Origin: Chiloscyllium plagiosum
Taxonomy: Eukaryota
Length of the DNA stretch: 64,000 nt
Assembly (NCBI RefSeq): GCF_004010195.1
Contig: NC_057714.1
Coordinates: forward strand, 61,219,868-61,283,867
Direction: 5' to 3'
Part shown: positions 6,546 to 62,952 of the stretch, piece by piece
Layout of the letters: every line of letters begins with the position of its first letter
Numbering within the stretch: position 1 is the first letter of the stretch
Position numbers and translations under genes: made by a program
Notes under the pieces: model-generated
The model's input: the letters and a program-made list of their open reading frames with translations, nothing else
Database searches by the model: none
What the model was told of the DNA's origin: nothing

Positions 6546-6703
6546 GAATTCACAGAATTCTTCACAGAAGCACTTCACAGGAGGCTCCCAAGCACTGAGG
6601 ATGTCACCTAGACGGGACGAAACGTCTGCAACACAAATTCCCAGCTTGGCGAACAGAACCACAACAACGAGCACCCGAGCTACAAATCTTCTCCCAAACT
6701 TTG
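6546..6703 (+). mobile_element. Penelope-type 3'/pLTR fragment with hammerhead motif (family D)
   Basis: TSD AAGAATTATCTA at 6534-6545 and 6704-6715; similar to the Penelope 3' end at 41410-41522. Confidence 0.75.
6592..6629 (+). ncRNA. Minimal type I hammerhead ribozyme motif
   Basis: GCA-CTGAGGA-T-GTCACC tagac GGGAC-GAAAC-GTC-TGC; stem I GCA/TGC. Confidence 0.7.
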
Positions 6704-7877
6704 AAGAATTATCTATACTTTCTCAGGTTGTCCTGACTTGGTTTCAGAGAATGAGGAAACTGAACATAGCCAAGAAGTGTGGCAGTAAACAAGGTGATTT
6801 AGACTTAATGAGAAGAAATTTATGACTTTTGTTCTACTCCACTTGGCGCAAAGTGGAGAACTTGCATTGCATTCTTTATGCTGTAATGGTGAACGACAGT
6901 ATGAAGAAGTTCTGCAAAGATATAATTCAGTGCAGTTATTTATGATTTATGCTGCCTCCTGTACAACATTTTCTTCTGTTGAAAAGTTCTAAAGTAGAGA
7001 ACAACCTGAAGAGGATCAAAGAATACAGCACAATTTTAAACAGCTATTGGAGATATAAACAGCAACCACTTTCAAAGGTGTGATGTGAGAAAAATGAAAT
7101 GATTGGAGAAAAGAAAATACTGCTTATAAAAATGACCAGTATTCAGTAAGAATTCATTTAGATGTGATAGAGATTTAATTAAATAAGATTTGACTGGGAT
7201 TTAAAGGAATCTTATGAAATAAGATGCATCAATAGGAACCAAATTGTGCTTTAGATTCCAAAAAATGTCTAAAACATTTCTGGTCAAATGTTTGTATTAA
7301 TTGTTATATTGATGTTTAATTAAACTAGAGTCTGTAAAATGTACCATCTTTTTATTGACTGTAGATTGGGTAACTAAAGACCTTTAAATGTGTGTTAATT
7401 GTTTTTCTCTCTGATTCTTTTTTTAAAAATCCTATCTATGCAAAGTGGATTGTTTTGGACCAAGCATTAGTTCACTTGAAAGGCTTTAAGGATTATCTTG
7501 ATGGCTTGTTGGATATTTTCTGCATCTTGTGGAAAATGAGAGAGAAAAACTTGGCAAGACCAGAATTGATTTTCAAAATAGTATTTTCATGTCAGTCAGT
7601 TACTAGTGTTCTCAACTGACATTGTGGCAGAGGTCACAGATTTAATCCCTTATCTACTGAGTGAGCTGCTTCAGCCAAGACAGTTTTAAGTTCTGTCCCT
7701 AGTGTGCCTGGATAGGAAATGGAAAAGATCAGTCAGGTACCTACTCTTTAATGTCTCCAAGGAAAATGTACAAGTGTGATATTGAGTGAGGACATGGTTG
7801 AGCTTGACTGAGCTTGAAAGAGCAACTAGGGGATATACATTCACTCATTTACAAAGAATAGGTATTTGGGATGCTTT

Positions 7878-7984
7878 GTGATGCATGGTAATGCCCCTAT
7901 CTCTGGGTCAGGAGGTCTGGGTTCAGGTACCACTTGCTCCAGAGGTGTGTCATAACATTTCTGAATAGGTTGATTTGAAAATAA
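7878..7984 (+). mobile_element. Short tRNA-derived SINE
   Basis: A/B-box-like head (TGGGTTCAGG); homologous to 8840-8950. Confidence 0.55.
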
Positions 7985-8251
7985 ACAAAAACAATTGGAA
8001 GACATGGGTGATTTACTGGTGGTATTTAATAGATGGAAAACATACCATCTATTTTGATATGGTGATTGGGGAAAACATTCAGTTGTGTGTAAAGCAGATT
8101 TGGCCATAAATAATTTTGAAAAAAGAGAATACCTACTTGATTAATTAGAAAACATGGAGGATTTACTGGTGGTAGTCAATAAGTGAAAAAATACTATGGG
8201 TAATTTGGTGATGAGGAAAAGGAAACATACAGTTATGTGAGAGAGCACTTA

Positions 8252-8816
8252 AGAGTCATAGAAATGCACAGCATAGAAACAGTCCAACCCGTCCATGCCG
8301 ACCAGATATCCCAACCCAATCTAGTCCCACCTGCTAGCACCCGGCCCATATCCCTCCAAACCCGACCCCAGGGAAAGGACTTTGCCTATTTACCCTATCC
8401 ATGCCCCTCCTAATTTTGTAAACCTTTATAAGGTCACATCTCAGCCTCTGACGCTTCAGGGAAAACAGCCCCAGCCTGTTCAGCCTCTCCCTGTAGCTCA
8501 AATCCTCCAACCCTGGCAACATCCTTGTAAATCTTTTCTGAACCCTTTCAAGTTTTACAATATCTTTCCTGTATGAAGGAGACCAGAATTGCATGCATTA
8601 TCCAATAGGGGCCTGACCAATGTCCTGTACAGCCGCAACATGACCTCCCAACCCCTGTACTCAATACTCTGACCAATAAAAGAAAGCATACCAAACACCA
8701 CCTTCACTATTCTGTCTACCTGCGACTCCACTTTCAAGGAGCTATGAACCTGCACTCCAAGGTCTCTTTGTTCAGCAACACTCCTTAGGACCTTACCACT
8801 AAATGTATAAGTCCTG
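8252..8816 (-). mobile_element. CR1 3' fragment
   Basis: QFWSPSYRKDIVKLERVQKRFTRMLPGLEDLSYRERL. Confidence 0.9.
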
Positions 8817-8839
8817 TGAAATAAAACTGTTTGGAGGCC

Positions 8840-8950
8840 TGTCGTGGTACAGTGGTTATATTTCTGTCTTTGAACCAGGAGACCTGGGTTCAAGTCCCAT
8901 CTGCTCCAAAGGTGCGTCAGAACATCTCTGAACAGGATGATTAGAAAATA
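8840..8950 (+). mobile_element. Short tRNA-derived SINE
   Basis: GTGGTACAGTGGTTA ... CCTGGGTTCAAGTCCCA (A and B boxes). Confidence 0.6.
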
Positions 8951-9105
8951 TAAGAATAGAGATTTGGATAAGGTACCTGAGGATTGACAAAACATCTGAA
9001 ATCATGACTGATCCTAACTCAAGCTTATGAGAAATGAGAATTTTGGAAATTTTGCTGAATTATTTGTTAATCACTCTACCTGTGGTGTTTCTTCTTTTTT
9101 ATTAG

Positions 9106-9347: not shown

Positions 9348-9349
9348 GT

Positions 9350-9566
9350 CAAAGATGTTGTAAATCATAAACAAAAACAGAAATTGCTAGAAAGCCCAGC
9401 AGGTCCAGCAGCATCTGTGGTGAAAAAGCAGAGTTAAATTTTGGGTCCAGTGACCCGCCTTAAGAATTGAAGGTTCTGAAGAAAGGTCTCTAGATTCGAA
9501 ATGTTAACTCTGTTCTCTCCACAGATGCTACTGGACCAGCTGAGTTTTTCAGCAATTTCTGTTTTC
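9350..9566. mobile_element. Hairpin element with decayed hammerhead core (family B)
   Basis: Arms aaaacagaaattgct...gagttaa and ttaactc...agcaatttctgtttt; CTGAAGA at 9476, GAAA at 9498. Confidence 0.7.
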
Positions 9567-16397: not shown

Positions 16398-16554
16398 TTA
16401 AAAATCACACAACACCAAATTATAGTCCAACAGGTTTATTTGAAAGTACAAGCTTTGGGTGTGCTGCTAGCTGACTAAGGAGCAGTGCTCTTACTTCCAA
16501 ATAAACCTATAGCCTGGTGGGGTGTGATTTTAACCTTGTCCAGCACCTCCACTT
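16398..16554. mobile_element. Hairpin element, family C, decayed
   Basis: TSD CAGTTGATAAGA at 16386-16397 and 16555-16566; homologous to 26637-26847. Confidence 0.7.
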
Positions 16555-16789: not shown

Positions 16790-17760
16790 CCAAACTCAAC
16801 TCGATCGCATCATCTCTCCCGAATCACCACTGTTGGTAGATTAGCAGCCTGCTTACCCAACATCCAGTACTGCATGAGCAGAAAATTTCTCCAATTAAAT
16901 ACTGAAGCTATTGGTTTTGGTCTTCACTTCAAACTTCTCACTCTCATGACTGACTCTAAACTTTACCTTGAATGTTGACTGAGATTAAGATTAAGCTAGT
17001 TTGTCTACAAACTTCATGTCACATTTGAATGAGAGATGAGCTTCTGACCTCCCATTCCAAATATCACCAAGATGCCGATATCCACCTCTAACTTAATCTG
17101 ATTGATTGTCTCAGCTCACCTGAAACTCTTATCCTGCCTTTTATCTCTAAACTTGACTGTTCCAATACGCTAGATTAGAGTGGTGCTGGAAAAGCACAGC
17201 AGGTCAGGCAGCATCTGAGGAGCAGGAAAATCGACATTTTGAGCAAAAGTCCTTCATCCTGATGAAGGACTTTTGCCCAAAACGTCGATTTTCCTGCTCC
17301 TCAGATGCTGCCTGACCTGCTGTGCTTTTCCAGCACCACTCTGGTTTCCAGCATCTGCAGTCCTCACTTTTGCCTGTTCCAATGCACTGCTGGCTGATCT
17401 TCCACATTCTACCCATTCTAATTTTGGGGCCATCTAAAACTCATTGCCTGTGTTTAGCTGGCAGCAACTCATATTCCCCGATCTCCCCTGTGCTTGATCG
17501 GGAGCCAAGATAGTTGAACGAGTAAAGTGTTGGCATGAAAAAGCTTTTTCCTGTTTTCAAATCTTTCTCTGCCTGCACTCCTACATATTTCTCCAGCCCC
17601 AAAATCTGCAATGTCTGTGCTCTATTCCTGAACAGAATTACGCATTTTCCATTATAACTGCTGCACCAATGGTAGTGTTATCTTCAGTTACTTAGACCCA
17701 AGATTCTGAAATTTCTCACCTACCCTTCTCTGTCTCTTGAAAAATCAACTTCATTGTTCA
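16790..17760 (+). mobile_element. L2-like LINE 3' fragment interrupted by a hairpin element
   Basis: Degenerate ETLI.AF.S.LD.SNALLA.L motif split at 17157-17390. Confidence 0.6.
17172..17373. mobile_element. Hairpin element, family A
   Basis: About 82-bp inverted arms 17177-17258 and 17261-17342; CTGATGA at 17259; TSD CTGTTCCAAT at 17157 and 17374. Confidence 0.85.
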
Positions 17761-18177: not shown

Positions 18178-19588
18178 TAGAATCATAGAGATATACAGCA
18201 TGGAAACAGACCCTTCGGTCCAATCCGTCCATGCCGACCTGATATTCCAACACAATCTAGTCCCACTGCCAGCACCCGGACCATATCCCTCTAAACCCTT
18301 CCTATTCATATACCCATCCAAATGCCTCTTAAATGTTGCAATTGTACCAGCCTCCCCCACTTCCTCTGGCAGCTCATTCCATACACGTACCACCCTCTGC
18401 GTGAAAACATTGCCCCTTATGTCTCTCATATCTTTCCCTCTCACCCTAAACCTATGCCTCTAGTTCAGGACTCCCCACCCCCAAAGGAAAATACTTTGCC
18501 TATTTACCCTATCCATGCCCCTCATAATTTTGTAAACCTCTAAGGTCACCCCTCATCCTTCGATGCTCCAGGGAAAACAGCCCCAGCCTGTTCAGCCTCT
18601 CCCTATAGCTCAAATCCTCCAACCCTGGCAACATCCTTGTAAATCTTTTCTGAACCCTTTCAGGTTTCACAACATCTTTCCGATAGGAAGGAGACCAGAA
18701 TTGCACACAATATTCCAACAGTGGCCTAACCAATATCCTGTACAGCCGCAACATGACCTCCTGACTCCTGTACTCCATACTCTGACTAATAAAGGAAAGC
18801 ACACCAAACGCCGCCTTTACTATCCTATCTACCTGCAACTCCACTTTCAAGGAGCTATGAATCTGTACTCCAAGGTCTCTTTGTTCAGCAACACTCCCTA
18901 GGACCTTACCATTAAGTGTATAAGTCCTGCTAAGATTTGCTTTCCCAAAATGCAGCACCTCGCATTTATCTGAATTAAACTCCATCTGCCACTCAAATGG
19001 CTAGTTCTCCCTGTATTCCATGAGATCTAACCTTGCTAATCAGTCTCCCATGGGGAACCTTGTTGAACACCTTACTGAAGTCCATATAAATCACATCTAC
19101 TGCTCTGCCCTCATCAATCCTCTTTGTTACTTCCTCAAACAACTCAATCAAGTTCATGAGACATGATTTCCCACGCACAAAGCCATGTTGACTATCCCTA
19201 ATCAGTCCTTGCCTTTCCAAGTACATGTACATCCTGTCCCTCAAGATTCCCTCCAACACCTTGCCGACCACCGACGTCAGGCTCACTGATCTATAGTTCC
19301 CTGGCTTGTCTTTACCACCCTTTTTAAACACTGGCACCACATTAGCCAACCTCCAGTCTTCCGGCACCTCACCTGTGACTATCGATGATACAAATATCTC
19401 AGCAAGAGGCCCAGCAATCACTTCTCGAACTTCCCACAGAGTTCTCGGGTACACCTGATCAGGTCCTGGGGATTTATCCACCTTTACCAGTTTCAAGACA
19501 TCCAACATTTCCTCCTCTGTAATATGGACATTTTTGCAAGATGTCACCATCTATTTCCCTACAGTCTATATCTTCCATATCTTCCACT
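18178..19588 (-). mobile_element. Young CR1 copy with internal deletion near 18993
   Basis: 185-aa and 158-aa RT ORFs; highly similar to 1-1541. Confidence 0.92.
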
Positions 19589-20062: not shown

Positions 20063-20964
20063 CTGAAAACAGAAGAAATAAATACATTTTTGGACATGAA
20101 TTTATTGGATGTCATTAAAAGCCAGGGTGCACTGAATGCACCAAATAACTTAGAGTCATACAGCATAGAAACAGACATGGTGGGCCAAAGAGCTGATGTC
20201 AACCAACAAGCACCAAACTGCACTGGCATTATTATGCTCTGGCATTTTATGTGCTCATCCAGATACTTTGTCATACATACAGCATAGAAACAGACCCTGT
20301 GGTCCAACCAATCCTTGCCAAACATGACCCCAAACTAAATTCATCTCACCTGCCTGCTCCTGGCCGATATCCCTCAAAACCCTTCCTATTTATGTATCTA
20401 TCCAAATGTCTTTTAAATGTTGTAACTGTACATGCATCCACCACTTCCTCGGGAAGTTTATTCCATATGCGAACTACCCTCAGTGTAAAAAAAACTTGAT
20501 ACCTACTGTCACCACTCTGTCAGGCAGCACATGCCAAATGTCTATCACCCTTTTGGTAAAAAGCAACTTTTTTCTCAGATCTCCTCTAAATCATTTGCTC
20601 CTCACCTTAAACTTACGCCCTCTGGTCTTAAGTTTAATATGGAAAAGATTCTCATGATTACTCTGTCTATATTTTTCATAATTGTATAGGTCAATCAGAT
20701 ACCTCCTCGGCCTCCTGTGCTCCAAGGAAGACAAATCCAGCCTATCCAGTCTCTCCTTATAACAGACTTTTTATCCCAGGCAACATCGTGATGAATCTCT
20801 TCTGCACCTTCTCCAGTGCAATCGTGCTTTTCTGGAGAGTATGAGGCAACCAGAACTACACACATTATTCCATCTGTGGCCTAACCAATGTTTTATACAG
20901 TTGTAACAAGATTTCCCTGCTCCTATATTCTACTTTCAGCTAATGAAGGCAAGCATCCACTATG

Positions 20965-21106
20965 ACAAAGTGAGGAGTGCAGATGCTGGAGATCAGAGCT
21001 GAAAATGGGCAGCAGGTCAGGCAGCATCTAAGGAGCAGGAGAATCGACGTTTCGGGCATGAGCCCTTCTTCAGGAATGCATGTGCTTTTCCAGCAACACA
21101 TTTTCA
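20965..21106 (-). mobile_element. Family A element with intact hammerhead core
   Basis: 16-bp TSD GCAAGCATCCACTATG at 20949-20964 and 21107-21122; minus strand reads CTGAAGA-A-GGGC tcat GCCC-GAAAC-GTC. Confidence 0.8.
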
Positions 21107-21800
21107 GCAAGCATCCACTATGCCTTCTTCACCACCCTGTCTACCCATGCTGACACCTTCAGGGATCTATGGACTTGTACACCAAGGTCCCTTTATTCCT
21201 CAGTATTCCCCAAGGACCTACCAATCATTTTGGATATCCTTCCCTTATTAGAATTCCCAAAATGCATCACCTCATACTTATCAAGACTAAATTCCATCTT
21301 CCATTGTTCTGCCCAATTTCAAGTTGTAGCCCGAGACCATCCTCCTCATTATCAACAACACCCCAATTTTCATGTTACTATTTATACCATCTCCATTCAC
21401 ATCCAAGTCATTAATGTGCATTACAAACAGAAAGGGCCCCAACACCGATCTCTGTGGTACACTGCTGGTCACAGACTTCCAATTACAAAAACAATCCTCT
21501 TCCATTAGATTTTGCCTCCTATTTGTAAACCAATTCTAGATCCAGTTTGCCGATTTGTCTTAGATGCAGTGAGCAGCTTTCCATGTAAACCGCATCAACT
21601 GTACTCTCCTCATCAATATATTTAGTCACTTCTTTTTCAAAAAAAACTCAATTAAAATAGTCATACAGGATCTCTCTCAAATCTATGCTGGTTATTCCTG
21701 ATTGATCCCTGCCTTTCCAAGTATTAATTAATTCTGTCCCTCAATTTTGTTCAATAATTTCCTACCACTGATGTTTGACTAACTGCTCTGTAATTACCTG

Positions 21801-21887
21801 CTGAAAATGTGTTTCTAGAAAAGCGCAGCAGGTCAGGCAGCATCCAAGGAGCAGGAGAATCGATGTTTCGGGCATGAGCCCTTCAGG
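21801..21887 (-). mobile_element. Family A single-arm fragment
   Basis: TSD AATTACCTG at 21792 and 21888; hammerhead core partly deleted. Confidence 0.7.
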
Positions 21888-21995
21888 AATTACCTGGCCC
21901 ATTCCTGCTTCCCTCCTTGAACAGAGAAACCACATTAGCTATCCTCCAGTCTTCTGGCACTTCACTTGTGGCCCGCAAAGTATTAAATATCTCAC

Positions 21996-22140
21996 ATTCT
22001 TAAGAACTAGTTCTAAAGAAGGGTCACTGGACCAGAAACATTAACTTTGCTTTCTCTCCACAGATACTTCCAGACCTGCTGAGTTTTTCGAGCAATTGTT
22101 TATTGTTTCTAATTTCCAGCATCTGCAGTTCTTTTGTTTT
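21996..22140 (+). mobile_element. Family B single-arm element
   Basis: ttctaaagaagggtcactggaccagaaacattaact followed by the family B tail. Confidence 0.65.
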
Positions 22141-23263
22141 TTTTTAAATTAGGTATCTCCACCAGGGCCCCAGAAATTTCTTCCTTTGCCTCCTAAAGCA
22201 GCTAGGGATACATCTCATCAGGGCCTGGGGATTTATGCACCTTTATGCCCATTGAAACATTTAATACTTCCTCCTTTATTAACCTTAACATGTTTCAGAA
22301 CTTCTCTACCCAAAAAGAAATCCCCGGCTGCAACATCTTTCTCCTCCATGAATATAGATGGTAAGTATTTATTTGAGCACCTCACCAACATTCACTAGCT
22401 CCATACACAGGTTGCCCCTTTGGTCTCACTTAGGCCCCACTCTTTCTCTGGTAATTCATTTACTCTTAGTATACTTAGAAAAAGCTTTGTAGTTTCCTTA
22501 ATCCTATCTGCCAAAGACATTTTGTGGCCCTTCTTTGCCTAATTTCTTTTTTAAGCAACTCTCTATACTCTGAACTTTTGAAGTGCCTCCCCTGTTTTTA
22601 ACACTGTACCTGACCTATGCTTCCCTCTTGTTCTTTATCAAACTCTCAATATCCCTTGACATCCAGTATTCGCTAGACATGCTGCCCTTCTCCTTCACTC
22701 TTCGAAGAACATGTTGGGCCTGAACTCTCACTATACTTTTGAAAGACTCCCACTTTCCAAATGTAGACTTCAACTGGGAGCAGCTGCTCCCAGTCTACGT
22801 TTGCCAGATCCTGTCTAATGACATTAAAATTGGCCTTCCGCCAATTTAGACTCTTCTCTATTCTTCGTTTCCATAACAACTTTGAAACTTAGAGTTACAG
22901 TCACTATCCCTAAATTGCTCACCCACCGAAACTCCTAACCACATGACCGGCTTCATTCCCAAGGATTAGGTCATGCATTGCCCCATCTCTACTAGGACTA
23001 TCTATGTACTGCAGAAAAACTCTCCTAGATGCATTTTAAGATTTCCACTCGAATTCTTTCATGCTAAGACAATTCCATTTAACTTTAGCAAAGTTAAAGT
23101 CCCCTATGACTACAACCCTGTTTCTCACACAACTTTGTGAGTTGCTCCTCTATCTCCCTCTGACTGTTGAGAGGCCTATTTTATATTTCCAGCTAACTAA
23201 TTGCCCTTTTTAAAAAAAAATTAAGCTCCATCCAAACGGCTTCCTTTGAAAAGCCTTCAAAAA

Positions 23264-23380
23264 CAGCTCAGTGGTTAGCACTGCTGCCTCACACCACCAG
23301 AGTTCTGGGTTTGATTCCAGCCTTGGGTGACTGTCTGTGTGGAGTTTGCACATTCTCCCTGTGTCTTCAGGGGTTTCCTC
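23264..23380 (+). mobile_element. HE1-like SINE 5' fragment
   Basis: CAGTGGTTAGCACTGCTGCCTCAC ... TGTGTGGAGTTTGCACATTCTCCC. Confidence 0.75.
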
Positions 23381-26140: not shown

Positions 26141-26334
26141 AGGTTGAAATCTTCGAGGAGAAAGTGAGGTCTGCAGACGCTGGAGATCAAAGCTGAAACT
26201 TTATTGCTGGAACAGCACAGCAGGTCAGGCAGCATCTAGGGAACTGAAGAAGGGCATGTGCCCGAAACGTCGAATCTTCTGTTCCCTAGATGCTGCCTGA
26301 CCTGCTGTGCTGTTCCAGCAATAAAGTTTCAGCT
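26141..26334 (+). mobile_element. Family A hairpin element with intact hammerhead core in the loop
   Basis: 54-bp perfect inverted repeat 26191-26244 and 26281-26334; CTGAAGA-A-GGGC atgt GCCC-GAAAC-GTC at 26244-26271; TSD CTATTAATAGAAGT at 26127 and 26333. Confidence 0.85.
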
Positions 26335-26636
26335 ATTAATAGAAGTGGCATACAAAGAAGTTACACTCAACTATTATTACATAAAATCGGAGGAAGAGTC
26401 ATTTGACTTGACATGTTAACTCTGATTTCACTCCACAGATGCTGGCAGATCTGCTGAGCTTTTTCCAGCAATTTCTGTTTTTGTTTATTATTACATAAAC
26501 ACTGTTTACGGCTTGTGCTGAAGTATTTTAGCTAATTGAGGGCACTACACACATTAGGAAGGATGTTAAGTCATTAGAGAGAATACAAATGGGATGTAAC
26601 GACAGTTGCTATGTGGTTGAATGCCTTAATTAAGTG

Positions 26637-26847
26637 ATGTGGAGGTGCTGGTATTGGATTGGGATGGACAAAGTTAAAAATTACATAACACCAAGTTATT
26701 GTCCAACAGGTATATTTGCAAGTACAAGCTTTTGGAGCACTACTCTGTTGTCAGGTAGCTACCTGACGAAGGAGCAGGACTTCAAAAGCTTGTACTTCTA
26801 AATAAACCTGTTGGACTATAACCTGGTGTTATGTAATTTTTAACTTT
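26637..26847. mobile_element. Family C palindrome
   Basis: Arms 26670-26758 and 26759-26847 with no spacer; CTGACGA at 26763; TSD TTAATTAAGTG at 26626 and 26846. Confidence 0.8.
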
Positions 26848-32115: not shown

Positions 32116-32425
32116 GGGCAGCACGGTGGCACAGTGGTTAGCACTGCTGCCTCACAGCGCCAGAGACCCGGGTTCAATTCCCGCCTCAGGCGACTGACTG
32201 TGTGGAGTTTGCACGTTCTCCCCGTGTCTGCGTGGGTTTCCTCCGGGTGCTCCGGTTTCCTCCCACAGTCCAAAGATGTGCAGGTCAGGTAAATTGGCCA
32301 TGTTAAATTGCCTGTAGTGTTAGGTAAGGGGTAAATGTCGAGGGTATGGGTGGGTTACGCTTCGGCGGGTTGGTGTGGACTTGTTGGGCCGAAGGGCCTG
32401 TTTCCACACTGTAATGTAATGTAAA
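32116..32425 (+). mobile_element. HE1-like SINE, near intact
   Basis: GGGCAGCACGGTGGCACAGTGGTTAGCACTGCTGCCTCACAGCGCCAGAGACCCGGGTTCAATTCC; (TGTAA)n tail. Confidence 0.92.
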
Positions 32426-35227: not shown

Positions 35228-35541
35228 ATTAGATTACTTAGTGTGGAAACAGGCCCTTTGGCCCAACAAGTCCACACTGACCTGCCGAAGCGCAACCCAC
35301 CCAGACCCATACCCCTACATTTACCCCTGCACCTAACACTACAGGCAATTTAACATGGCCAATTCACCTAACCTGCACATTTTTGGACTGTGGGAGGAAA
35401 CTAGAGCACCCGGAGGAAACCCACGCAGACACGGGGAGAATGTGCAAACTCCACACAGCCAGTTGCCCGAGGCGGGAATTGAACCTGGGTCTCTGGCGCT
35501 GTGAGGCAGCAGTACTAACCACTGTGCCACCGTGCTGCCCA
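35228..35541 (-). mobile_element. HE1-like SINE, near intact
   Basis: Reverse-complement match to 32116-32425. Confidence 0.9.
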
Positions 35542-40089: not shown

Positions 40090-40778
40090 GTAGCTCAGAT
40101 TGTGGATCAGATTGTACATTTGCTCGCTGAGCTGGTAGATTTTTTTGTCAGACGTTTTGTCGCCATGCTAGGTTACATCATCAGTGAGCCTCCGATGAAG
40201 CGTTGGTGTTCTGCCCCGCTTGCTATTTGTGTCTTGGTCTGTTGTGGTGAGTGATCTCATTTCTTGTTCTGTTTCTGAGAGGTTGGTCAATGGGGTCCAA
40301 ATGGATGTATTTGTTAATGGAGTTCTGGTTTGAATGCCAGGCCTCTCAGAATTCCTGTGCATGTCTTTGTTTAGCCTGTCCTAGAATGGATATATCGTCC
40401 CAGTCGAACTGGTGCCCCTCTTCATTTATGTGTATGGATACTAGTGATAGTAGGTTAGGTCTTTTGGTGGCTAGTTTCCTGCCTGTCTGTCCAATGTAAT
40501 GTTTGTTGCAGTCCTTGCAGGGTATTTTGTATATGACATTCGTCCTGATGGTTGTTGATACAGGGTCCTTTAAATTCATCAGGAGCTGTTTCAGTGTGGT
40601 GGTAGGTTTGTGAGCTACCATGATGCCTAGGGGCCAGAGTAGTCTGGTTGTCATCTCCGAGATGTCTTTAATGTATGGCAGGGTGGCTAGAGTATCTGGG
40701 TGTGTTGTGTCATCTTGTTTAGGATTGTTGTGTAGGAATTGGTGAACTGCACTAATTGGGTACCCATTGTTCCTGAAT
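40090..40778 (-). mobile_element. Penelope-like element 3' part (GIY-YIG endonuclease plus hammerhead), left arm
   Basis: NVIYKIPCKDCNKHYIGQTGRKL. Confidence 0.88.
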
Positions 40779-40805
40779 ACATTGCATCAGTGCTTTTCCT
40801 CAACA

Positions 40806-41522
40806 ATGTATTCAGGAACAACGGGTACCCAATAAGCGCAGTCCGCCAATTCCTACACAACAATCCTAAACAAGACGACAACAAACGCAGAGACTCTCGC
40901 TACCCTGCCGTACATTAAAGACATCTCGGAGATGACAACCAGACTACTCGAGCCCCTAGGCATCATGGTAGCCCACAAACCTACCACCACACTGAAACAG
41001 CTCCTGATGAATTTAAAGGACTCCGTATCAACAACCAGCAGAACAAATGTTATATACAAAATACCCTGCAAGGACTGCAATGAACATTACATTAGACAGA
41101 CAGGCAGGAAACTAGCCACCAAGATACATGAGCACCAACTAACCACCAAAAGACATGGCCAACTATCACTAGTAACCATACACACAGATGAAGAGGGACA
41201 CTAGTTCGACTGAGAGAATACATTCATCCTGGAACACACTAAACAAAGACACACACTGGAATTCCTACAGGCCTGGCATTCAAACCAGAACTCCATTAGC
41301 AAACACGTTGATTTGGACACCATTTACCAACCTCTCAGAAACAGAACCGGAAGTGGTAACACCTACCGTAACTGACCAAGACACAAATAGCAAGCGGGGC
41401 AGAACACCAGCGCTTTATCGGAGGCTCGCTGATGATGTTACCTAGCATGGTGATGAAACGTCTGAGAACAAACCTACCAGCTCAACGAGCAAACTTACAA
41501 CACGATGCTTAACCTGAGCTAC
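40806..41522 (+). mobile_element. Penelope-like element 3' part (GIY-YIG endonuclease plus hammerhead), right arm
   Basis: TLPYIKDISEMTTRLL; NVIYKIPCKDCNEHYIRQTGRKLATKIHEH. Confidence 0.88.
41425..41466 (+). ncRNA. Minimal type I hammerhead ribozyme motif in the Penelope 3' end
   Basis: CTCG-CTGATGA-T-GTTACC tagcat GGTGAT-GAAAC-GTC-TGAG. Confidence 0.75.
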
Positions 41523-44500: not shown

Positions 44501-45109
44501 GGCATTCTTATAGAAACATATAAAATTATGAAGGGAATAGATAAGATAGGTCCACGGAGGTTGTTTTCACTGGCAGGTGAAATTAGAACGCGGGGGGGTG
44601 CATAGCCTCAAAATAAGGGCAAGAAGATTTAGAACCGAGTTGAGGAGGAACTTCTTCACCCAAAGGGTTGTGAACCTGTGGAATTCCCTGCCCAGTGAAG
44701 CAGTTGGGGCTACCTCGTTGAATGTTTTTAAGGCGAAGATCGATAAATTTTTGAAAACTAAAGTAATTAAAGGTTATGGTAAGCGGGGCGGGGGGGGGGG
44801 GGGAGGTGGAAATAAGTAGAGCTAAGTTCATAAAAAGATCAGCCATGGTCTTATTGAATGGTGGAGAGGGTTTGATGGGCTAGATGGCCTACTTCTGCTC
44901 CTGTTTCCTAATGTACTTGTAATAAAGAGAATCTTCCTAAGAACACAAACCTGATTTGTGTTTCCTGTCAACCTGAGTCTGAAAGTCAGGTAAATTGTAT
45001 GCACCTTTTTTTCTCTTAAGCATCTTTGACTTTTGGGACAACTCCACAAATAGCAGGGCTTGATTTTCTAGTATGGTTCACTGGTGAAATGTGACAAGAT
45101 ACACAAAAG

Positions 45110-45324
45110 GAGAAAGTGAGGGCTGCAAATGCTAGAGATCAGAGCTGAAAATGTGTTGCTGGAAAAGCGCAGCAGGTCAGGCAGCATCCAAGGAACAGGA
45201 GAATCGACGTTTCGGGCATAAGCCCTTCTTCAGGAATCAGGGCTGAAGAAGGGCTTATGCCCGAAACGTCGATTCTCCTGTTCCTTGGATGCTGCCTGAT
45301 CTGCTGCGCTTTTCCAGCAACACA
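45110..45324. mobile_element. Family A hairpin with an intact hammerhead core on each strand
   Basis: 82-bp arms 45152-45233 and 45243-45324 with 1 mismatch; TSD ACAAGATACACAAAAG at 45094-45109 and 45322-45337. Confidence 0.88.
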
Positions 45325-48460: not shown

Positions 48461-48675
48461 AGTGGTGGAAAAGCACAGCAGGTCCGGCAGCATCCGAGCG
48501 ACGGAAAAAATGACATTTCAGGCAAAAGCCCTTCATCAGGAAAGTCCTGATGAAGGGCTTTTGCCCGAAACATCGATTTTCCTGCTTCTCAGATGCTGCC
48601 TGACCTGCTGCACTTTTCTAGCGCCACTCTAATCTTGACTCTGATCTCCAGCATCTACAGACCTCACTCTTGCCT
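48461..48675. mobile_element. Family A hairpin element
   Basis: Inverted arms around the AAAGT centre at 48541-48545. Confidence 0.85.
48537..48584 (+). ncRNA. Type I hammerhead ribozyme motif with full stem I
   Basis: CAGGAAAGTC/GATTTTCCTG 10-bp stem I; CTGATGA; GGGC-TTTT-GCCC; GAAAC; ATC triplet. Confidence 0.75.
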
Positions 48676-51540: not shown

Positions 51541-51645
51541 GAAAAACAAAAACAGAAGTTGCTGGAAAATCTCAGCAGGTCTTGGAGCATCTGTGGAGAG
51601 AAACCAGAGTTAACATTTCGGGTCCAGTGACCTTTCTTCAGAACT
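51541..51645 (-). mobile_element. Family B single arm with near-intact hammerhead core
   Basis: Minus strand reads AGTT-CTGAAGA-AAGGTC actg GACCC-GAAAT-GTT-AACT. Confidence 0.7.
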
Positions 51646-52957
51646 GTCTCCATTGCAAAGACCTTTTTAATCAAAATTGTCCCATTTTGTACATTCAAAA
51701 CAGCTGTAGAGAGCTACATTTTTGCATGGTCCAGGAACTGTTAAAGCTTCCGTATGTGAGTGTACATGCATGGCCAAGAGCATCCTCATGTCACTCATGT
51801 CAATTGGTCACTCCGTCCTGAGCATGTGTCAACTAACATTAAGTTGATGAACAGTGTACAGAAATAATGAATTTAGAAATTAATGAATCACAGGACTTTG
51901 AGTAACAATGACAGCGGAACACTCAGCATTCACTGTGAATACACCACTGAACCACGTTTCAACTTTGAAAGTCTGCACAGATGCGATATTTCACAAAGAT
52001 GTTCGTATATCAAAGATTAATGTTTTACTTTCATCAGCTGTATTGATTCATTGAACTTTTCTTTTTAAAAAAAAGCACATTTTTATTGTCACACTTTGCA
52101 ACATACTTTATTTGACAAAGGAATCCTAGAGGTATGTGAACAGTTTTCATCCGGCTTTACCAAGGGATACCTACAGAAGCTTAAAATGTTGGAAATAGAA
52201 CAATACAAATCTGATTAGCCAGGGCCACGAAACAATAGCTAAGTTAATTGTGTCAACATGAGCTGATCAAATTACCTTCTGGAAAATGCAATTATATTTT
52301 GCTCTATTCCCCTTAATTAGAGCAAGTCACATGACCAGCAAAACGATTTTGAGAGATCATTAGACACATCATTAGGTATGCAGGGAGAACTATTGATGAA
52401 CTGTGGACAAACAGTTGAAGAGCTGCAGCATTCCTCTCCCTCTAATCTTAGAAAATCTCTGAGCCCTTTTGCTTATTGAATCCAACCAGAGATCATTTAA
52501 AGTACCTGGCTTCTGAATTATGCTTACAATTACAAATCAATTAGAATCATCAGTCAGGCTCACAATATGACTTAATTGCATGCACCAGAAGCTACATTTA
52601 TTAATAAACAAGGAGCATTTTTTTTATAGACAAAGAAAATGTATATGCATTGTGCCTGTTTTAACTCAATAAATTAGGTGACAGCCATTTGCTGATTCAT
52701 TTCTCAGGACAATGCCCTGAGAAATCAGATTTAACCTGCCTGGTTTGAATTCTAAACAAAGCCTGGCAGTTAACTGCCACTGATCACAAATTGATACTTT
52801 TTTTTTGGAAACACCTCTACCAGAGTTCATTTGCCACCATTCAGCACTCTCCTCTCATGCAGTATAAAAGTGTTGGTTTTCACTCTGCTTTGATATTCTT
52901 CTGAATTGTCCTAATCAGTGCATGAAAACCTTCAAGAAATGTCTTTTAAACGCAATA

Positions 52958-53116: not shown

Positions 53117-53555
53117 TATTCAAGTTCTGTATGACTAAACGACATTTGAAATCCAATAATATGCATTATAGTTCAGAAGGATCAAAATTATTGAAAACAA
53201 AACCAACATACTGTAGATGCTGGAAATCTGAAAAAAAATTTCTTGGAGAAACTGACTAGGTCTGCAGCATCTGCAGAGAGAGAAACAGTTAACGAGAAAA
53301 CAGAAAAAAGCAGATGCTGGAAGTCAGAAACTAAAACAAAAACTGGTGAATAACCTTAGCAGGTGTGGCAACATCTTTGGAGAAAAAGCAGAGTTAACAT
53401 TTTGAGTCCAATATAACTTCATGAAATAACTCCACAGAGGCCAGTATCCCATCACCAAACAACATTTTATTTATACATGGAGAGTCCTTGAAACTGATCC
53501 AGCTTCGTCAGAGCTCGCTCGCAGTGTGAACAGAATCGCTGACACTCCTGGTCTT

Positions 53556-54005
53556 TTCTTTTTTGCTCTTCTTACACGCGCACTCACACACTGATCCAAC
53601 TCTCAACAGGGAAAACACCCAAGTGGCCAGTGACAAGCAATGCCCCTCACATCAAAGGGTAATGCTGTGTGATCACATTCCCCTTTTTTCTTTTTCACTC
53701 TTTTTTTTTAAATTAACCCCCACACTACCGCCTAACCGCGGTAGTGCTTATTTTTTCCCCAGCACCCATGTGTGTGTGTACAGGTGTGAGACACAGTGAA
53801 AGACACAAAGTGCATGAATCTTTATTCAATTTCCACCACCAGGAAGATAGGAAAACACCCGGGTGGCCAGTGACAAGCAGTGCCCTTCACATCAAAGAGC
53901 AGTGCTGTGTGATCAAAACAGTGAAGGGGAGGGTAGGGACTAAATCAAAATAGAATTGGAGGGAGGACACTCCTGTTCTTTTTTTTTCTTTTTTTTTCTT
54001 TCCTC
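53556..54005 (-). mobile_element. Stacked poly(A)-tailed 3'-end insertions (putative Tx1-like)
   Basis: T-tracts on +, bracketed by GACACTCCTG(T/G)TCTT at 53541, 53966 and 54006. Confidence 0.6.
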
Positions 54006-54789
54006 GACACTCCTGTTCTTATCTGTCAGCCATGGCTCTCTGATTGGACCAGATTAACAGCCCCAATCAGGGAATTCATATTCTACGAGGACCAGCTGCC
54101 CTTTTGAGTGTGAGGACATAGGCCATTTTTATTTGTAGCTTCTCCTGGGGTGCTTTAGCACCTGGTCAGATTCCTTCAACTCTGCCTCTGATATGTGCGG
54201 TGTGTAATGCACAGTAGCTCGCCTCTTGTGCCTGGAGAATCTAGGAAGAAATTCATTCCCTTTAGGTGGTAAAGGCATTGAGGTGGTGACATTTGCCATG
54301 TCCATCTCAGATTCCAAGGTATCTTCAACTCTTGATGGAGAGGGAGAACCCATGGTTTCTGGAACAGTTGGAAATGCTGTTGAGGAACTGGGCACGTTTT
54401 GCTCCCTCACTGTTTGTGAGGTTGCAGCTTTTCTATGGTCCACATGTTTGTTCAGGATTGTCACATCGACCCATACTTTATACATCACTGCACCTGATCT
54501 CACATCGAACATGCTTCTTATCCATGCAGGGCCATTCCTATAGTTCCTACACCAAACTTCATTCGCTGAAGTAAACAATCTCTCTTGCTTATCAGAGTCT
54601 TATATCCAGCATCGGCATTTCTGATGCCATTATTGGCACTCCTGACGCTGCATTCAATTCGGACACCAGACATAACTTCACACCAGCATCTTCATTTTGG
54701 AAACCCTTAGATGATCCTGGTGAACTTCAGTCAGTATCTGGCGGTGACCTTTGCTTGGGACAATCACTCATGATTCCCATAATAATATG

Positions 54790-55080
54790 CCGTCCTCTAC
54801 CATAAGCTGGTCTCTCAAGGTTGAAAGTGCAACCAAAAGCAGAGGAGGAGGTTTTTGAGAAAATCAAAAAGGGAGTGCAAATGCCCACATGCAATATACA
54901 CGTGGTCCACGGACTCCACAGCGCCACAGAACAAGCAGTTGGGCTGGGAGTCCGTGAACCACCGCAATCTGTGGTTGCAGGGGACCACTGCGTGCAGCAC
55001 CCTCCACCCCAGATCCCCAAGAGAAAGGGGGAGGACTCTTCGTAGAGACCCCTCCACTGGGGATCCCCACCGCCCGGTGG
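54790..55080 (-). mobile_element. Tx1/L1-group LINE ORF2 C-terminal zinc-finger fragment
   Basis: DLGWRVLHAVVPCN..L..F....NCLFCGAVESVDHVYIAC (zf-RVT-like CCHC). Confidence 0.8.
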
Positions 55081-55859
55081 GACACTCCTGTTCTTATCTG
55101 TCAGCCAGGGCTTCCTGATTGGAGCAGATTAACAGCCCCAGTCAGGTCACTCATTCTATGAGGTTGACCTGGCTGACCTTGTTACAATCACTACACTTCA
55201 GAACTTGAAGACTCTGAAGAAGAGCTCTATTAGACTCAAAACATTAACTCTATTTCTCCCTCTACGCAAGCTGCCAAATCTACTTAGCTTTTCCAGCAAT
55301 TTTTAAAAAAATGTTATTACCTTCTGTATTATATCAAATGATTTATCAAATGGAATTTTTATTTGAACCTCAAATGTAAGTGAGAGATATAAAACATTCT
55401 TTAAACAGTAATTATCTCATCCTTCTTGGAAATGCTGGTACGGACGGTCACTTGTCCTGAAGAAAGATGAGGCACATCCTGTTCCTATATTAATATTTTC
55501 TAAAGGCCATATAAACAGCAGCTTGCTGCCAAATTATCTATGACCTCAGGATATGGTGATATTAAAAAAAAGTGATTCTATTGATGGCTTGGACATAAAT
55601 GATTTTGTACATTTTTATTCAATACATCCAGCAAGTTTATTTGTCTGGTTGTAATTCCTGAAGAGGACATGTTTCTTTGTCTGCGGATGCTGCCAGACCT
55701 GCTGAGTTTCTTCAGCACTTGCTGGTTTTACTTCAGACCTCTAGTTTCCACAGCACTTTACATTTATCTCAGCTGATTTCAGAATAAAGAGAACAAACAT
55801 TTACTTTCTACCAATCTAATGGTTGGCAGGCTAACTGCAGCTGAACAACTGGCTACCTT

Positions 55860-57770
55860 CATAGAGGAAATGGTTTGGATACAGTCAAGATATATTTCCT
55901 CAAATAAGAAAAGGTAGGACAAATAAATCCAAAGATCTCTGGATAACGACGGAAATAGAAATTAAGTTATACAACAAAAAGTGTCCTTATCGCAGATGTA
56001 TACATACAATTGAAACCCAAGCTGAGTTCAGATGGTTTAGAAACAACATGGAGGAGAAAGTGAGGTCTGCAGATGCTGGAGATCAAAGTTGAAACTTTAT
56101 TGCTGGAACAGCACAGCAATGAGAAAGCAAATGTGAGAAGCAAAGTGGGATCATGAAGAAAAACTAGCAGCTAACATAATGGAAAAGTCCAAAGGTCTTT
56201 TATAAGGACATCAATAGTAAAATGATAAGAAAAGGAAGAGTGACATTAATTAGATGGGATTTGCACATGGAGGCAAGAGGCACAGCTCAAGTTTTATATT
56301 AATACTTTTGCATCTGTCTTTGCCTACAACTTTTCTTAATGTTGATAGGCATCAGGACCGGATAGATACGTCCAAGGATACGGAAAGAAATAAGTGGAAA
56401 TCACAAGGGCACTGGCAATAATCTTTCAGTCTTCCCTTGAGTCAGGGGTGGTGCCGAAGGACTGCAGTATTACAACCATTGTATTGCTAAAAAAAAGTTG
56501 CACATTTTTGTCTAACAGTCAGTTTAGCTTCAATGATGAGGAAACTTCTAGAAGCAATCATTTAGGATAGAATTAATAGTCTCATTAAAAAAAGTAAATA
56601 AATTTGGAAGAATCAGCACAGATTTGTTAAATGAGATTTGTGTCTAACTAATTTTCAGGAGTTTTTCTACAGAGGTAACAGAGAGGGTTGATGAGGGAAA
56701 GACTGTTGATGTGAATACATGTGGACTTCCAAAAGGTATCAGCCCTGAGGAAATATTTAGGCCATGAAATAAAGGGACAGTAGCAACATAAATACAAAAT
56801 TGGCTGAGGGAAACAAAGCAGGGTAGAATAGCTTATAGGTATTTATTGGCCTGGTAAAAAGGTTCATAGTGGAGATCCCCAGGACATTGGTTGTTGGATT
56901 CTTGCTTTTCCTGATATATGTTAATGATCTAAATTATAGTGTACAGGTGACAATTCAAAGTTTGTGGACAACACAAAACAAAACTGAAGAGGGCAGTGTT
57001 GAATTTCTAAAGGGCAGTGATATGTTGGCAGAGTGGATGGATAGATAGGTAAATGATGGTATGCTATTTGGCATGCAGGAGAATTGAGATCTTGATGCAT
57101 ACCTAAAGCAGTCATTAAAAGTGGAAGGACAGGTAAAGACAGTGATTAGTAAACATTACAGTCTTACAGACTTCTTGAATCGGGGTACAAGAGCAGAGAA
57201 GTTGTGATAAACTTACAGAAAAATCTGGTAAGACATCAACTGGAATATTGTAGAGTTCTGGGCATCACGCTGTAGGAAGGATGTGAAGGATGACATTGGA
57301 GAAGAGGTCTGCAAGAATTATTCTCGGGATAAGATGCTTTTGTTATTAGGAAAGACTGAGGAGGCTGCGACTGTTTTCATTGGAGAGGAGAAGGTTAAGT
57401 GGAGATGAGATAGAAAATTTCAATATCGCGAAGGGTTTGGACAGAGTGGATAGGGAGACAGAGTGGATAGGGAAAAACTGGTCCCACTTCTAAATGGATC
57501 GAGAACCAGACAGCACATTCTTAATGTGTTTTGCAAACAAACAAAGCAAGTATGAAGTACAGCAGGTATTTAAGGTGTAGAATGTACTGCCTGGAAGCAT
57601 AGTAGCACACAGCCAATTAAGACATTCAAGAGGGCATTGGATGATTATTTAAAGAGTAGCTATGTACAGAATTAGGAGAATAAGCAGGAAATAGACTCCC
57701 AGTTAAAATGCACAGATAGCCACTGCAGACAAGATAGGCTGAGTGGCCTCCTCTTGCGTTGTTAAAATTC
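55860..57770 (+). mobile_element. Old CR1 ORF2 region (family A fragment nested at 56051-56118)
   Basis: Degenerate QHRFVK..CLTNF.EF, EVTERVDEG, CR1 tail. Confidence 0.7.
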
Positions 57771-58518: not shown

Positions 58519-59078
58519 AGTCATAGAGTTGTACAACACGGAAACAGATCCTTCGGTCCAACTCATCCATGCTGACCAGATATCCTAAATTGATCTAATC
58601 CTATTTGCTAACATTTGGCTCATTTCCTTCCCAACTCTTCCTATTCAAATACCCATCCAGATGCCTTTTAAATGTTGTAATTGTACCAGCCTCTACCACT
58701 TCCTCTGGCAGCTCATTCCAAACATGGACCACCCTCTGTGTGAAAAAGTTGCCCCTTAGGTCCCTTTTATAGCTTACCTGTCTCACCTTAAACCTATACT
58801 GTCCTGTTATGGACTCCCCTAACCCAGGGAAAAGACCTTGAATATTCACTGTATTCATACCTCTCATGATTTTATTAAGTCACCCGCCAGCCTCCAACAT
58901 TCCAGGGAAAACAGCCCCTGTCTATTCAGCCTCTCCCTAGAGCTTAAACATTCCAACCCTGGCAACATCTTTGCAAATCTTTTCTGAACCCTTTCAAGTT
59001 TCACAACATCATTCCTATAGCAAGGAAACCAGAAATGAATGCAGTATTCTAAAAGTGGCCTAACCAATGTCCTGTACA
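58519..59078 (-). mobile_element. 5'-truncated CR1
   Basis: YRTLVRPLLEYCIHFWFP; FFTQRVVHVWNELP. Confidence 0.9.
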
Positions 59079-59229
59079 TAATAATGGTGATTATTTTTTG
59101 TCGATGTCATAGTGAGAGAAGCAGCAGCGGTGGAAATATCACCATATTGCTTGTGGATAAGCCATTTTCACTTATTGTGGAAATACTGGCTATGGTACAG
59201 TCACTGTAGGGATTGACAGAAAACAAAAG

Positions 59230-60707: not shown

Positions 60708-60924
60708 CAAGCAGTCCCCGGATTGTGAACGAATTCTGTTCTCGAGTCCGTTCACAAATCAATTTGTACACAAGATGAAAGACAATGCAAAATGTTATAA
60801 AGTAGCTGTTTGTAACTACAGGAAATATTTCAGTGTCAGATCTTTAAAATTACATCCTCTTATGAAATCACCTTTGTTAATACAAGCGACTGCAAGTCAA
60901 ACATTCATAAGTTGGAGACCATTG
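60708..60924. mobile_element. Old Tigger-like MITE
   Basis: TA|CAAGCAGTCCCCGGATTGTGAAC ... TTCATAAGTTGGAGACCATTG|TA imperfect terminal inverted repeats. Confidence 0.55.
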
Positions 60925-61409
60925 TATTCCATTTCCCTACCAATTTTCTGAAATATTCTTATCAAATATAGCCTTCCTCTTTATGTTGTCATTCCTGATT
61001 AGCCTTTAACCTTCCAAATTTTATCTTGTATTGTGAACCAAATAATCGACAAAAGGAATTAGGGCTGATTGGCCTAAGACTTACTTTCTTTCTCTCTTTT
61101 CTCCCTATCCTTGAACATGGTTGAGTACTGCGTATCCTCAAAATATTTGCCATTCTACCAATTTATCAAAACTGTTTGTAAACAATGTTTAATGATATGA
61201 CCATCTTCTCACTGATTGTACAATCATATTCAAGTCTTAGGATTTCAAGGAAACTCACAATCACTCATTCATACAATTGGCCATTGACTTTGAATGTGAA
61301 GACACTGCACCCTATTGAGTACCAGGTAACATCCAACTTCCCGATACATAACAACTTTAAAATTCAGAGGCAGTTATATAAACTTACAGCAAGAACATGG
61401 TGCACTTAC

Positions 61410-61554
61410 TTTTAAATCAAGGTGGACGATGTTGTTTCGGTGCAAGAAAGTCACACCCTCTAATATCTGCCTCATGAGCCGTTTGACATCTTTTTCTTTG
61501 AAGGCCTCTTCCCTCTCGGCTACACATTGGTTAAAAATTTCACCTCCAGCAGCA
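61410..61554 (-). CDS. STK17A: STK17A coding exon, 145 nt (catalytic loop); upstream exons lie beyond the window
   Basis: ccacag|[48 protein letters not shown]|gtaagt. Confidence 0.95.
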
Positions 61555-62849
61555 CTGTGGAAGAGAGTAAAGAAGTTATTGTAACTCAATTTAAGTGCGT
61601 TGGTAATAAGGATTAAAAAAAAACCCACAAATATGCCCCAAACACTTTCTTTGCTCAGCTACTAAAGATGTACTCCAGAAGGAAACCCCAGCATGACTAT
61701 CACACATCTTTTTGCACAACTCCCTGTTTTCTTTACATTTCGAAAATAAATAGTAACACAATGGTTGAGCATGCCTTGGACACTACACCAGGACACTTGT
61801 TATATTCCTACCCAAGACAGTACATTATAATCATTCATGGTGCTCGTAGATAACCTGCTCACACACAAGGGTAGGATGAGTGTGAAAATCTACCCCACTG
61901 TTATATTCCCTTAAGGAATATTAAGCCAAATTTAAGAACAAAATAATTTGCAATTTTTTTTTTAAATGTTTCAAGTTAGTTAAGAATCTATCATTTGCAA
62001 GCAATACAATGTTACAGGCTGTACTGAAAATAGATCATTGCATCATTTGCCTGTGATATCTTTGCAAATTGTAACACTTCTTCCACAAAGCAAAATGGTT
62101 TTCAAATCTGTTTTTCACTATGTCAATATCCTAATTAACTTCACTGGGCATAATACAGAGATATCATGCAGTGCTATGCTATTAACGAGATTCAGCTAAC
62201 TCTCAACATCATTGTACATTCTGATCTGCTTCCAATTACAAAAATATTCTTCAAGAACTCGAAATATTTCATGTGGAAAACAAAATCTATGAAGTTAATA
62301 GAACTTTTCATTATAAACAATGAGGAGAATAAAAGGTTGGTTTTGGAGTGAACAGTAAATGAAAATTGTTTGCACCTTCACTACTTTGTATACTTTGAAA
62401 CTGTTACATTAATAATAAGGATTGGCACACAAAAATATTCCCCTGCTTATATTCGTGATTCTGTTCAAAGAAATATTGGGGAGATGGGAAAATGGAAAGA
62501 GGTTTTATTATTCAGGTTTAAATATATGGTGTGGCTAATAGTCAGATTGTCATTTATAGTGTAAGTAACAGAATCATAAATTTAAATAAAAGTAGACTAA
62601 AATCCTACCTACATCCTTACAATACCTGCACACAGTAGTTTTGTCTGTCTGTTCAGTTATCTTTCCTGATGTTAAATTATATGTCTATTAACTTAATCAA
62701 GGAAAATGCAAACTAGTGTTTAATTGAAGTCAAAATTGCTTTCAAGTATTATTCACAAATAAACAAGCAAGATGCAATTTATTCCCAATGCTACATGGAA
62801 ATCACAACAAGAGAACTGGAGGCTTAGCCCAACCAGTTGCTATTGGCCA

Positions 62850-62952
62850 TGTTCTGAAGAAAGGTCTCTGGTCTCAAAATGTTAACTCTGCCTTCTCTCC
62901 ACTGATGCTGCCAGACATGCTGAGTTTTTCCAGCAATTGTGTTTTTGTTTCA
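62850..62952 (+). mobile_element. Family B single arm, decayed
   Basis: gttctgaagaaaggtctctggtctcaaaatgttaactctg plus family B tail. Confidence 0.65.

Follow-up and report, generated by a model that had tools for sequence, protein, structure and literature searches.

Short hammerhead-bearing insertions of Chiloscyllium plagiosum as terminal stubs of Penelope-like elements

A 64,000-nucleotide stretch of the 3.56-Gb Chiloscyllium plagiosum assembly (contig NC_057714.1, positions 61219868-61283867; hereafter the window) carries short insertions of four sequence families, A to D, whose arms of about 90–130 bp each comprise a hammerhead motif and a tail. Here, we conclude that these elements are almost certainly terminal stubs of Penelope-like elements (PLEs) with minimal hammerheads. 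The four families are probably autonomous, endonuclease-bearing PLEs, whose stubs would originate from priming at both ends of a target cut, with the complementary DNAs (cDNAs) of families A–C running off at the transcription start. In addition to the window, we used a position-neutral sample (864 kb of the same genome, in blocks taken by position; 842,386 called bases), a larger set of 602 insertion groups (this sample plus loci selected by search) and longer or further copies elsewhere in the same genome, designated by L numbers. Positions within an arm are counted from the C of CUGA (+1), and cleavage in family A is predicted after +28.

The hammerhead motif and its stems

The motif was searched for with a strict descriptor (CTGANGA, a paired stem II and GAAA), which matched eight times in the window compared with a mean of 0.27 (maximum 1) in 30 dinucleotide shuffles, and 70 times in the 864 kb compared with 0–4 in five shuffles. 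All 16 short elements listed in an initial annotation of the window, which had claimed more than 15, were recovered within about 60 bp of where it had placed them. The core that the better-preserved copies were said to share is present in the five elements that pass the strict descriptor (6546, 20965, 26141, 45110 and 48461), whereas the other 11 fail it, including every family B and C copy in the window. The element at 56051, previously taken as hammerhead-bearing, lacks any hammerhead part. An Rfam scan of the window, which the annotation had suggested as a check, returned no hammerhead match at E ≤ 5; its microRNA matches were below gathering scores and were set aside as reflecting the hairpins.

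Across eight subfamilies, the stems showed the covariation that had been proposed as a check: the core is constant, while stems I and II change and stay paired. Watson-Crick pairs account for 22 of the 24 modal pairs of stem I, with three pair types per column, and for 29/32 in stem II. None of 5000 partner shuffles reached the values observed for either stem, a count that, to the disadvantage of our reading, overstates independence and is not a probability because the compared subfamilies are related. Judged from sequence, the core, the covarying stems I and II and an ACGT or AGCT palindrome fit a minimal type I hammerhead with a palindromic stem III, as had been proposed. The palindrome itself had been given as ACGT or AAGCTT: ACGT was borne out for A, B and D1, but in family C the 4-mer reads AGCT (GAAAGCTA or GAAAGCTT). 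A further D subfamily, absent from the window, has stem II GTTACC/GGTAAT and other upstream sequence (L123, L179, L255, L277 and L291).

These features resemble the minimal hammerhead ribozymes (min-HHRs) found in the pseudo-long terminal repeats (pLTRs) of metazoan PLEs (Cervera and de la Pena 2014, PMC4209133). The available text of that paper describes, in common with the present motifs, a type I core with an extra nucleotide before stem II, a G-C pair at the base of stem II, a short stem I and a palindromic stem III, as well as thousands of dispersed copies from truncated PLEs and opposite-strand hammerhead pairs 100–700 bp apart. The accessible part of its main text names fish, coelacanth, Xenopus and reptiles, not sharks. 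Hammerheads of this kind in PLEs had been noted to act as dimers. The two motifs of a palindromic insertion lie on opposite strands, and the transcript of the palindrome at 45109-45324 is predicted to fold into a single long hairpin (-176.9 kcal/mol); on this fold, a palindrome could not supply its own dimer partner and would not be a dimer ribozyme.

Continuity with Penelope-like elements

The Penelope origin suggested by the annotation was supported by longer copies in the same genome, where every family is joined to PLE frames with reverse transcriptase (RT) and/or GIY-YIG remnants, best of all in family A. In that family, a 561-amino-acid frame at L115 with matches to RVT_1 (E 1.4e-8) and GIY-YIG (E 5e-4) ends about 160 bp 5' of a hammerhead. 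This frame has an Atlas score of 0.97 to HTH_animal/RVT_1/GIY-YIG clusters and gave no match in a PDB sequence search; at L055, the GIY-YIG match is above the Pfam cut-off. Family B arms lie 3' of broken endonuclease remnants homologous to the family A protein at no fewer than five loci (L175, L177, L189, L190 and L202). For family C, the arm at L210 is preceded by a third PLE frame, then a 700-bp untranslated stretch, and a relative at L149 has a weak GIY-YIG match. Family D arms are located 3' of PLE frames both in the window (40092-41520) and in L240. The window frames scored 0.95 to HTH_animal/GIY-YIG clusters in Atlas, and loci related to this copy matched RVT_1 at E 8.8e-7.

At six loci (L026, L310, L269, L003, L261 and L259), the family A module extends beyond the tail and enters the open reading frame (ORF) at its N-terminus. 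The module therefore stands both 3' of an RT and GIY-YIG frame and directly 5' of the ORF start, so that it occupies either end of the element in the manner of a pLTR. No such continuation was seen for B, C or D in the sample. These six copies are chimeric, passing from the module to the ORF start and then jumping to the 3' untranslated region; they are probably internally deleted partial tandems derived from template jumps. Near-identical 315-amino-acid frames of the family A endonuclease end were found at five loci (L119-L123, on contigs C1, C5, C10, C19 and C20), which suggests a recent burst of one subfamily.

Some observations speak against the assignment to PLEs. The Pfam scores of the C and D endonuclease frames are weak (E 0.097 and 0.061), the two D frames of the window have no Pfam match, and none of the 20 candidate loci at which an intact full-length copy was sought is complete, many being broken by N.

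A Cys-rich linker precedes the endonuclease in A, B and C and is absent from D. Under a criterion cited by Craig et al. 2021 (PMC8557442, in excerpt), the linker would place A, B and C with the Neptune type, and its absence would place D with the Penelope/Poseidon type. Two hallmarks of endonuclease-bearing PLEs were found here as follows: a single ORF with RT and C-terminal GIY-YIG 5' of the module (A; in B, C and D through broken homologous frames) and the module at the 3' end and at the ORF start as a pLTR in partial tandem (A only). The insertions also share with the elements in the available text of Craig et al. 2021 and of Arkhipova et al. 2013 (PMC3846280) the 5' truncation, an inverted 5'-truncated copy placed head-to-head, a one-ended 30–40-bp tail, variable target-site duplications (TSDs), and TATA and initiator (Inr)-like pLTR motifs. 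Unlike the elements described there, most insertions here consist of the terminal module alone and have a sharp 5' boundary. The class, the min-HHR motif and the inverted-plus-tail layout are already published.

The initial annotation had cautioned that the elements could be mistaken for miniature inverted-repeat transposable elements (MITEs), and indeed they are not MITEs. Being short, palindromic, TSD-flanked, abundant and without an Rfam hammerhead, they might pass for MITEs derived from a DNA transposon, their hammerhead-like centres being fortuitous. However, the fixed short TSDs, equal inverted repeats and matching transposase element that mark MITEs were not found; TSDs vary from 8 to 20 bp, the ends are unequal, the stems covary and the stubs run directly into RT and GIY-YIG frames. 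This continuity, together with the variable TSDs and unequal ends, refutes the MITE reading, which retains practically no probability. For genome annotation this matters, as such stubs are easily mislabelled as MITEs or microRNA hairpins.

The very high copy number that had been claimed also holds. A single family A core pattern has 64,334 exact matches in the genome and none in the reversed control, compared with 4,000–9,000 motifs per genome in the available text of PMC4209133. The position-neutral sample contains 199 insertions in 842 kb of called bases, or about 236 per Mb, and 165 of them do not exceed 300 bp, in agreement with the extreme truncation previously noted. The stubs form a large natural data set on the mechanism of PLE insertion.

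Arm architecture, priming and the 5' boundary

The insertions had been described as mostly palindromic, with mirror-image arms. While 9 of the 16 listed elements are head-to-head pairs, only 69 of the 199 insertions sampled by position are so arranged (by family, A 38/103, B 9/54, C 16/29 and D 6/13). Of the 602 groups, 192 have two arms set head-to-head, and 0 have two set tail-to-tail. Moreover, the arms are not symmetric. In 176 of the 188 classifiable pairs (four, with a reference lacking the tail, were left out), one arm bears an extra 30–40-nt 3' tail and ends at about +125, and the other ends at about +82 to +95, the two ends lying about 35–40 nt apart. The TSDs, announced as 9–16 bp, were confirmed but are longer: among 61 young A pairs, 55 have a TSD, which measures 14–16 bp in 43 (range 8–20). 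TSDs also flank 24/37 C, 7/9 D and 4/15 old B pairs, whereas mismatched flanks (n = 150) gave four, all of 7 bp.

Junctions between arms vary among copies, showing short overlaps or small numbers of untemplated bases, and recurrent ones (C2 at TAGCTA, A1 9/0 and 5/-2) sit on microhomologies. This bears on the possibility that the palindromes are true non-autonomous masters, similar to retrozymes or short interspersed nuclear elements (SINEs), which the PLE protein would mobilise as transcribed units. Such masters would fit the very high copy number, the recurring junctions (the C2 centre occurs in about ten loci) and the agreement of paired arms in subfamily letters described below. On the other hand, most junctions are unique, every family has coding copies, and head-to-tail tandem arrays were absent from the window and from the listed groups of the 864-kb sample. 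Furthermore, according to the available text of PMC11167929, the Anolis PLE protein requires a template that includes ORF-start sequence downstream of the tail, and this sequence is missing from the stubs. A palindromic transcript, predicted to form one hairpin, would sequester the motif. We regard palindromic masters as very unlikely, and the annotation's suggestion of non-autonomous or retrozyme-like units, which these observations do not support, as very improbable. The stubs are likely dead-end insertions that are not recopied. They share with non-LTR retrozymes the type I hammerhead, the derivation from PLE pLTRs and the lack of coding sequence (PMC7229834; bioRxiv 10.64898/2026.07.22.740005; both in excerpt), and, according to the preprint, the single chondrichthyan genome that it covers contains retrozymes. 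Retrozymes, however, are head-to-tail tandem arrays giving rise to circular RNAs, unlike the single arms or head-to-head pairs with TSDs found here.

The two arms of a pair agree in subfamily letters at four columns (44/46, 33/34, 43/45 and 43/49, with 50–76% expected; the column with 44/46 is split 53:46, giving an expectation of 50%), so that they come from one source or have been homogenised. This agreement, together with palindromic centres (TAGCTA in C2, GGAATTCC in A1), could be explained by self-priming, in which one cDNA or antisense template folds back, as proposed for rotifer Penelope in the accessible text of PMC3846280. A fold-back copy must, however, nest in its template arm. Among 108 A pairs, 29 have the long arm further 5' and fit this geometry; in 20 the arms are within 4 nt of each other, and in 59 the short-3'-ended arm lies further 5' by at least 5 nt, an arrangement also seen in 16/42 C, 13/17 B and 6/9 D pairs. 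The 59 A pairs, which do not nest, call for two separate priming events, and this agrees with the cutting and extension of both target strands in vitro by the protein of the Poseidon element PAc from Anolis carolinensis (Frangieh et al. 2024, PMC11167929, in excerpt). The arm geometry thus contradicts fold-back for the majority class; as the general explanation it is highly improbable, while it could hold for a minority. Two-ended priming is very likely for most palindromes.

PAc resembles the present families in further respects covered by the available text: its hammerhead lies at the pLTR-ORF junction, its main template is uncleaved RNA, and its tail is set by two internal RT start sites, to which PMC11167929 traces the one-sided tail of PMC8557442. 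Unlike PAc, families A–C carry the Cys-rich linker, and the family A ORF appears to start after the tail, not inside the hammerhead.

The 5' ends of the arms are strongly clustered. In the neutral 864 kb (84 arms), the end rate was 0.085 per nt at +5..-5 (29 ends), as opposed to 0.004–0.025 in the other bins and 0.010 per nt around the cleavage site. With more references, the rate at 0..-5 was 0.091 in A1, 0.095 in A2 and 0.133 in B; family C gave 0.042 at 0..-5 and 0.052 at -6..-11. The pile-up is located at -3/-2 in A and B and at about -5 to -8 in C. Of the single arms with TSDs, a set partly selected for an intact core, 22/34 start at -7..+2. Matched patterns identified 6,375 arms genome-wide that start at -3, compared with 281 at the cleavage site (+29) and 275 at the control position +34, meaning that insertions beginning at the cleavage site are not in excess. 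A peak at this site, hinted at by a few clean copies starting at +29, was therefore rejected. Likewise, a family B peak at +29 proved to be an alignment artefact of CpG decay, and a D2 peak at -2 an artefact of a subfamily missing from the references. A splice-site origin of the A1 boundary was ruled out, as the upstream sequence of single arms is unique to each copy. The arm geometry, the sharp 5' boundary and the lack of cleavage-site ends set limits on how inverted pLTRs can arise and on the roles that the ribozyme can have.

TATA-type matches occur at -31..-38 in B and at -37..-40 in C (18 matches in 27 long copies in each case), and an initiator-like TCA(G/T)T lies at -3 in A1 and B, both being elements of the general promoter consensus. 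Because of the TATA motif some 30 nt before the peaks of B and C and the initiator-like sequence in A1 and B, we read the boundary as run-off at the RNA 5' end. Furthermore, PAc needs a template that continues past the RT start into ORF sequence (PMC11167929, in excerpt), which would place priming at the pLTR-ORF junction near the transcript start and makes run-off the best reading. Overall, we consider run-off at the transcription start reasonably likely.

Several findings weigh against it. Subfamilies A1 and A2 have the sharpest pile-up and no canonical TATA in any of 126 long copies, while D1 has a TATA box at -52 and no pile-up (0 ends at -19..0 and 1 in -20..-29; 24 arms). Two of the six ORF-linked copies extend upstream of -3 (L026 to -115, L310 to -47), and the C2 peak overlaps the palindromic TAGCTA, which could itself favour junctions. 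One RNA run (related species label) provided 2,273 reads, on both strands, with the module about 100-fold deeper than the ORF start and loose ends at -3 and at the long 3' end; these reads, in which element transcripts cannot be told apart from host read-through, showed no molecule-start pile-up and neither a start nor a cleavage end. A second raw RNA run gave 0 reads. Finally, the A/B pile-up coincides with the 5' edge of stem I, so that a structural stop is possible.

Such a structural or protein-imposed stop at the hammerhead 5' edge would leave the PLE origin and two-ended priming unchanged. It would accommodate the position of the A/B peak on the stem I 5' strand, the missing TATA of A1/A2 and the lack of a D1 peak 30 nt below its TATA box, and the PAc protein assists hammerhead folding and so contacts this region (PMC11167929, in excerpt). 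Yet the RT reaches the stem I 3' strand (+29..+32) first, where there is no peak; the C peak at -5..-8 is situated past stem I (-2), roughly 30 nt downstream of the TATA motif; and D1 has a hammerhead but no stop. We therefore judge this explanation unlikely.

A cap-derived G could be expected to leave a trace at run-off ends, but the data are merely suggestive: G precedes A-3 in 10/17 untemplated junctions versus 4/15 at -2, and a hand count of the first 100 listed matches gave 59 with G before A-3, many of them supplied by the opposite arm. The natural letter before A-3 in subfamily A2 is T. At L258, L363 and L366, a local duplication of the arm's initial bases (ATTCCTG) lies immediately 5' of -3, as if the polymerase had re-engaged at the template end.

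Combining run-off with two-ended priming, insertion would proceed as follows. The target is cut in a staggered manner, as seen from the TSDs of mostly 14–16 bp, and the PLE protein would prime one short cDNA from each strand of the cut. The two 3' ends observed about 35–40 nt apart may correspond to two internal RT start sites, as in PMC11167929 (in excerpt). In families A–C, the cDNAs would run off at the RNA 5' end just upstream of the hammerhead, and the two cDNA ends would then be joined through microhomology or a few untemplated bases. The ribozyme would be conserved on master elements, with most templates staying uncleaved and the stubs unable to be copied again. On balance, we lean slightly towards the full picture of roughly 10^5-10^6 fossil PLE integration products, in which both strands were primed at two internal start sites near the RNA 5' end, strong-stop-like run-off took place at a TATA/Inr start lying exactly on the hammerhead's 5' edge and the template hammerhead was normally uncleaved. 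If true, the head-to-head pLTRs and the one-sided tail of PLEs would be explained without antisense self-priming, and the PLE replication cycle would become directly testable. A literature search whose coverage excluded most subscription journals found no paper stating the run-off model, and it found no description of these families, with Repbase/Dfam outside its coverage.

Insertions and other repeats of the window

The individual insertions are given below in window coordinates, those with two arms without a strand. They include a 17th element overlooked in the initial annotation, the 1.4-kb inverted family D copy with coding remnants at 40092-41520. The annotated pairing of 53310 with 55200 was correct, as they form a single B palindrome split by an insert.

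6562..6703, plus strand: single arm of family D1, -32 to +111; core intact at 6595; TSD of 14 bp with 1 mismatch
9353..9565: family B head-to-head pair; core decayed; a TSD was looked for and none found
16398..16554: family C head-to-head pair with internal deletions; exact 12-bp TSD
17172..17368: family A (older subfamily) head-to-head pair; left arm short, right arm tailed; 14-bp TSD with 1 mismatch
20964..21108: family A1 tailed minus-strand arm (-4 to +124) with a 28-bp opposite stub; core intact at 21073; exact 16-bp TSD
21800..21890, minus strand: family A1 short single arm, -3 to +90; small deletion in the core; 9-bp TSD
22008..22141, plus strand: single arm of family B, tailed, starting at -3/-4
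26157..26334: family A1b head-to-head pair; core intact at 26244; 16-bp TSD with 1 mismatch
26387..26486, plus strand: family B single arm; core decayed; exact 14-bp TSD
26635..26847: family C2 head-to-head pair whose arms meet at the palindromic TAGCTA (-7); left arm tailed; 11-13-bp TSD
40092..41520: family D2 inverted insertion of 1.4 kb; 3' part of a Penelope/Poseidon-type ORF (GIY-YIG remnant) in both arms, directly 5' of the hammerhead; intact core at 41429; arms 84-92% alike; no TSD found
45109..45324: young head-to-head pair of family A1; core intact in both arms (minus at 45233, plus at 45243); one 3' end long, the other short; exact 16-bp TSD
48462..48669: head-to-head pair of family A (older subfamily); its cores lie at 48539 and 48547; 12-bp TSD with 1 mismatch
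51544..51646, minus strand: family B single arm, starting at -4
53297..53420, minus strand: left arm of a family B palindrome, its centre split by a later 1,775-bp insert
55196..55302, plus strand: right arm of the same family B palindrome, partner of 53297..53420
56053..56118, minus strand: family A1b tail fragment, +60 to +125, without hammerhead
62851..62951, plus strand: family B single arm, starting at -1/-2; core decayed

Two more decayed B/A-like tail fragments, which had not been listed before, lie at 53212-53281 and 55676-55736. The insert in the centre of the B palindrome (53421-55195) has TG...CA ends, a 5-bp duplication (CTTCA) and internal repeats of 85 bp and 66 bp, and related ends are found on the same contig about 80 kb downstream. 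It contains a 156-amino-acid open frame (54132-54599, minus strand) with no significant Pfam match, and is probably a deleted LTR-type element. Much of the window consists of long interspersed nuclear element (LINE) and SINE copies, into which the PLE stubs are often inserted. The LINE copies, many and truncated, which we take to be of the CR1/L2 type, lie at 3-1430, 8280-8880, 18180-19550, 28000-29460, 32920-33550 and 58520-59080, with RT remnants recognised by eye. The SINE copies, related to transfer RNA, are located at 1554-1790, 23266-23380, 32116-32340 and 35305-35540.

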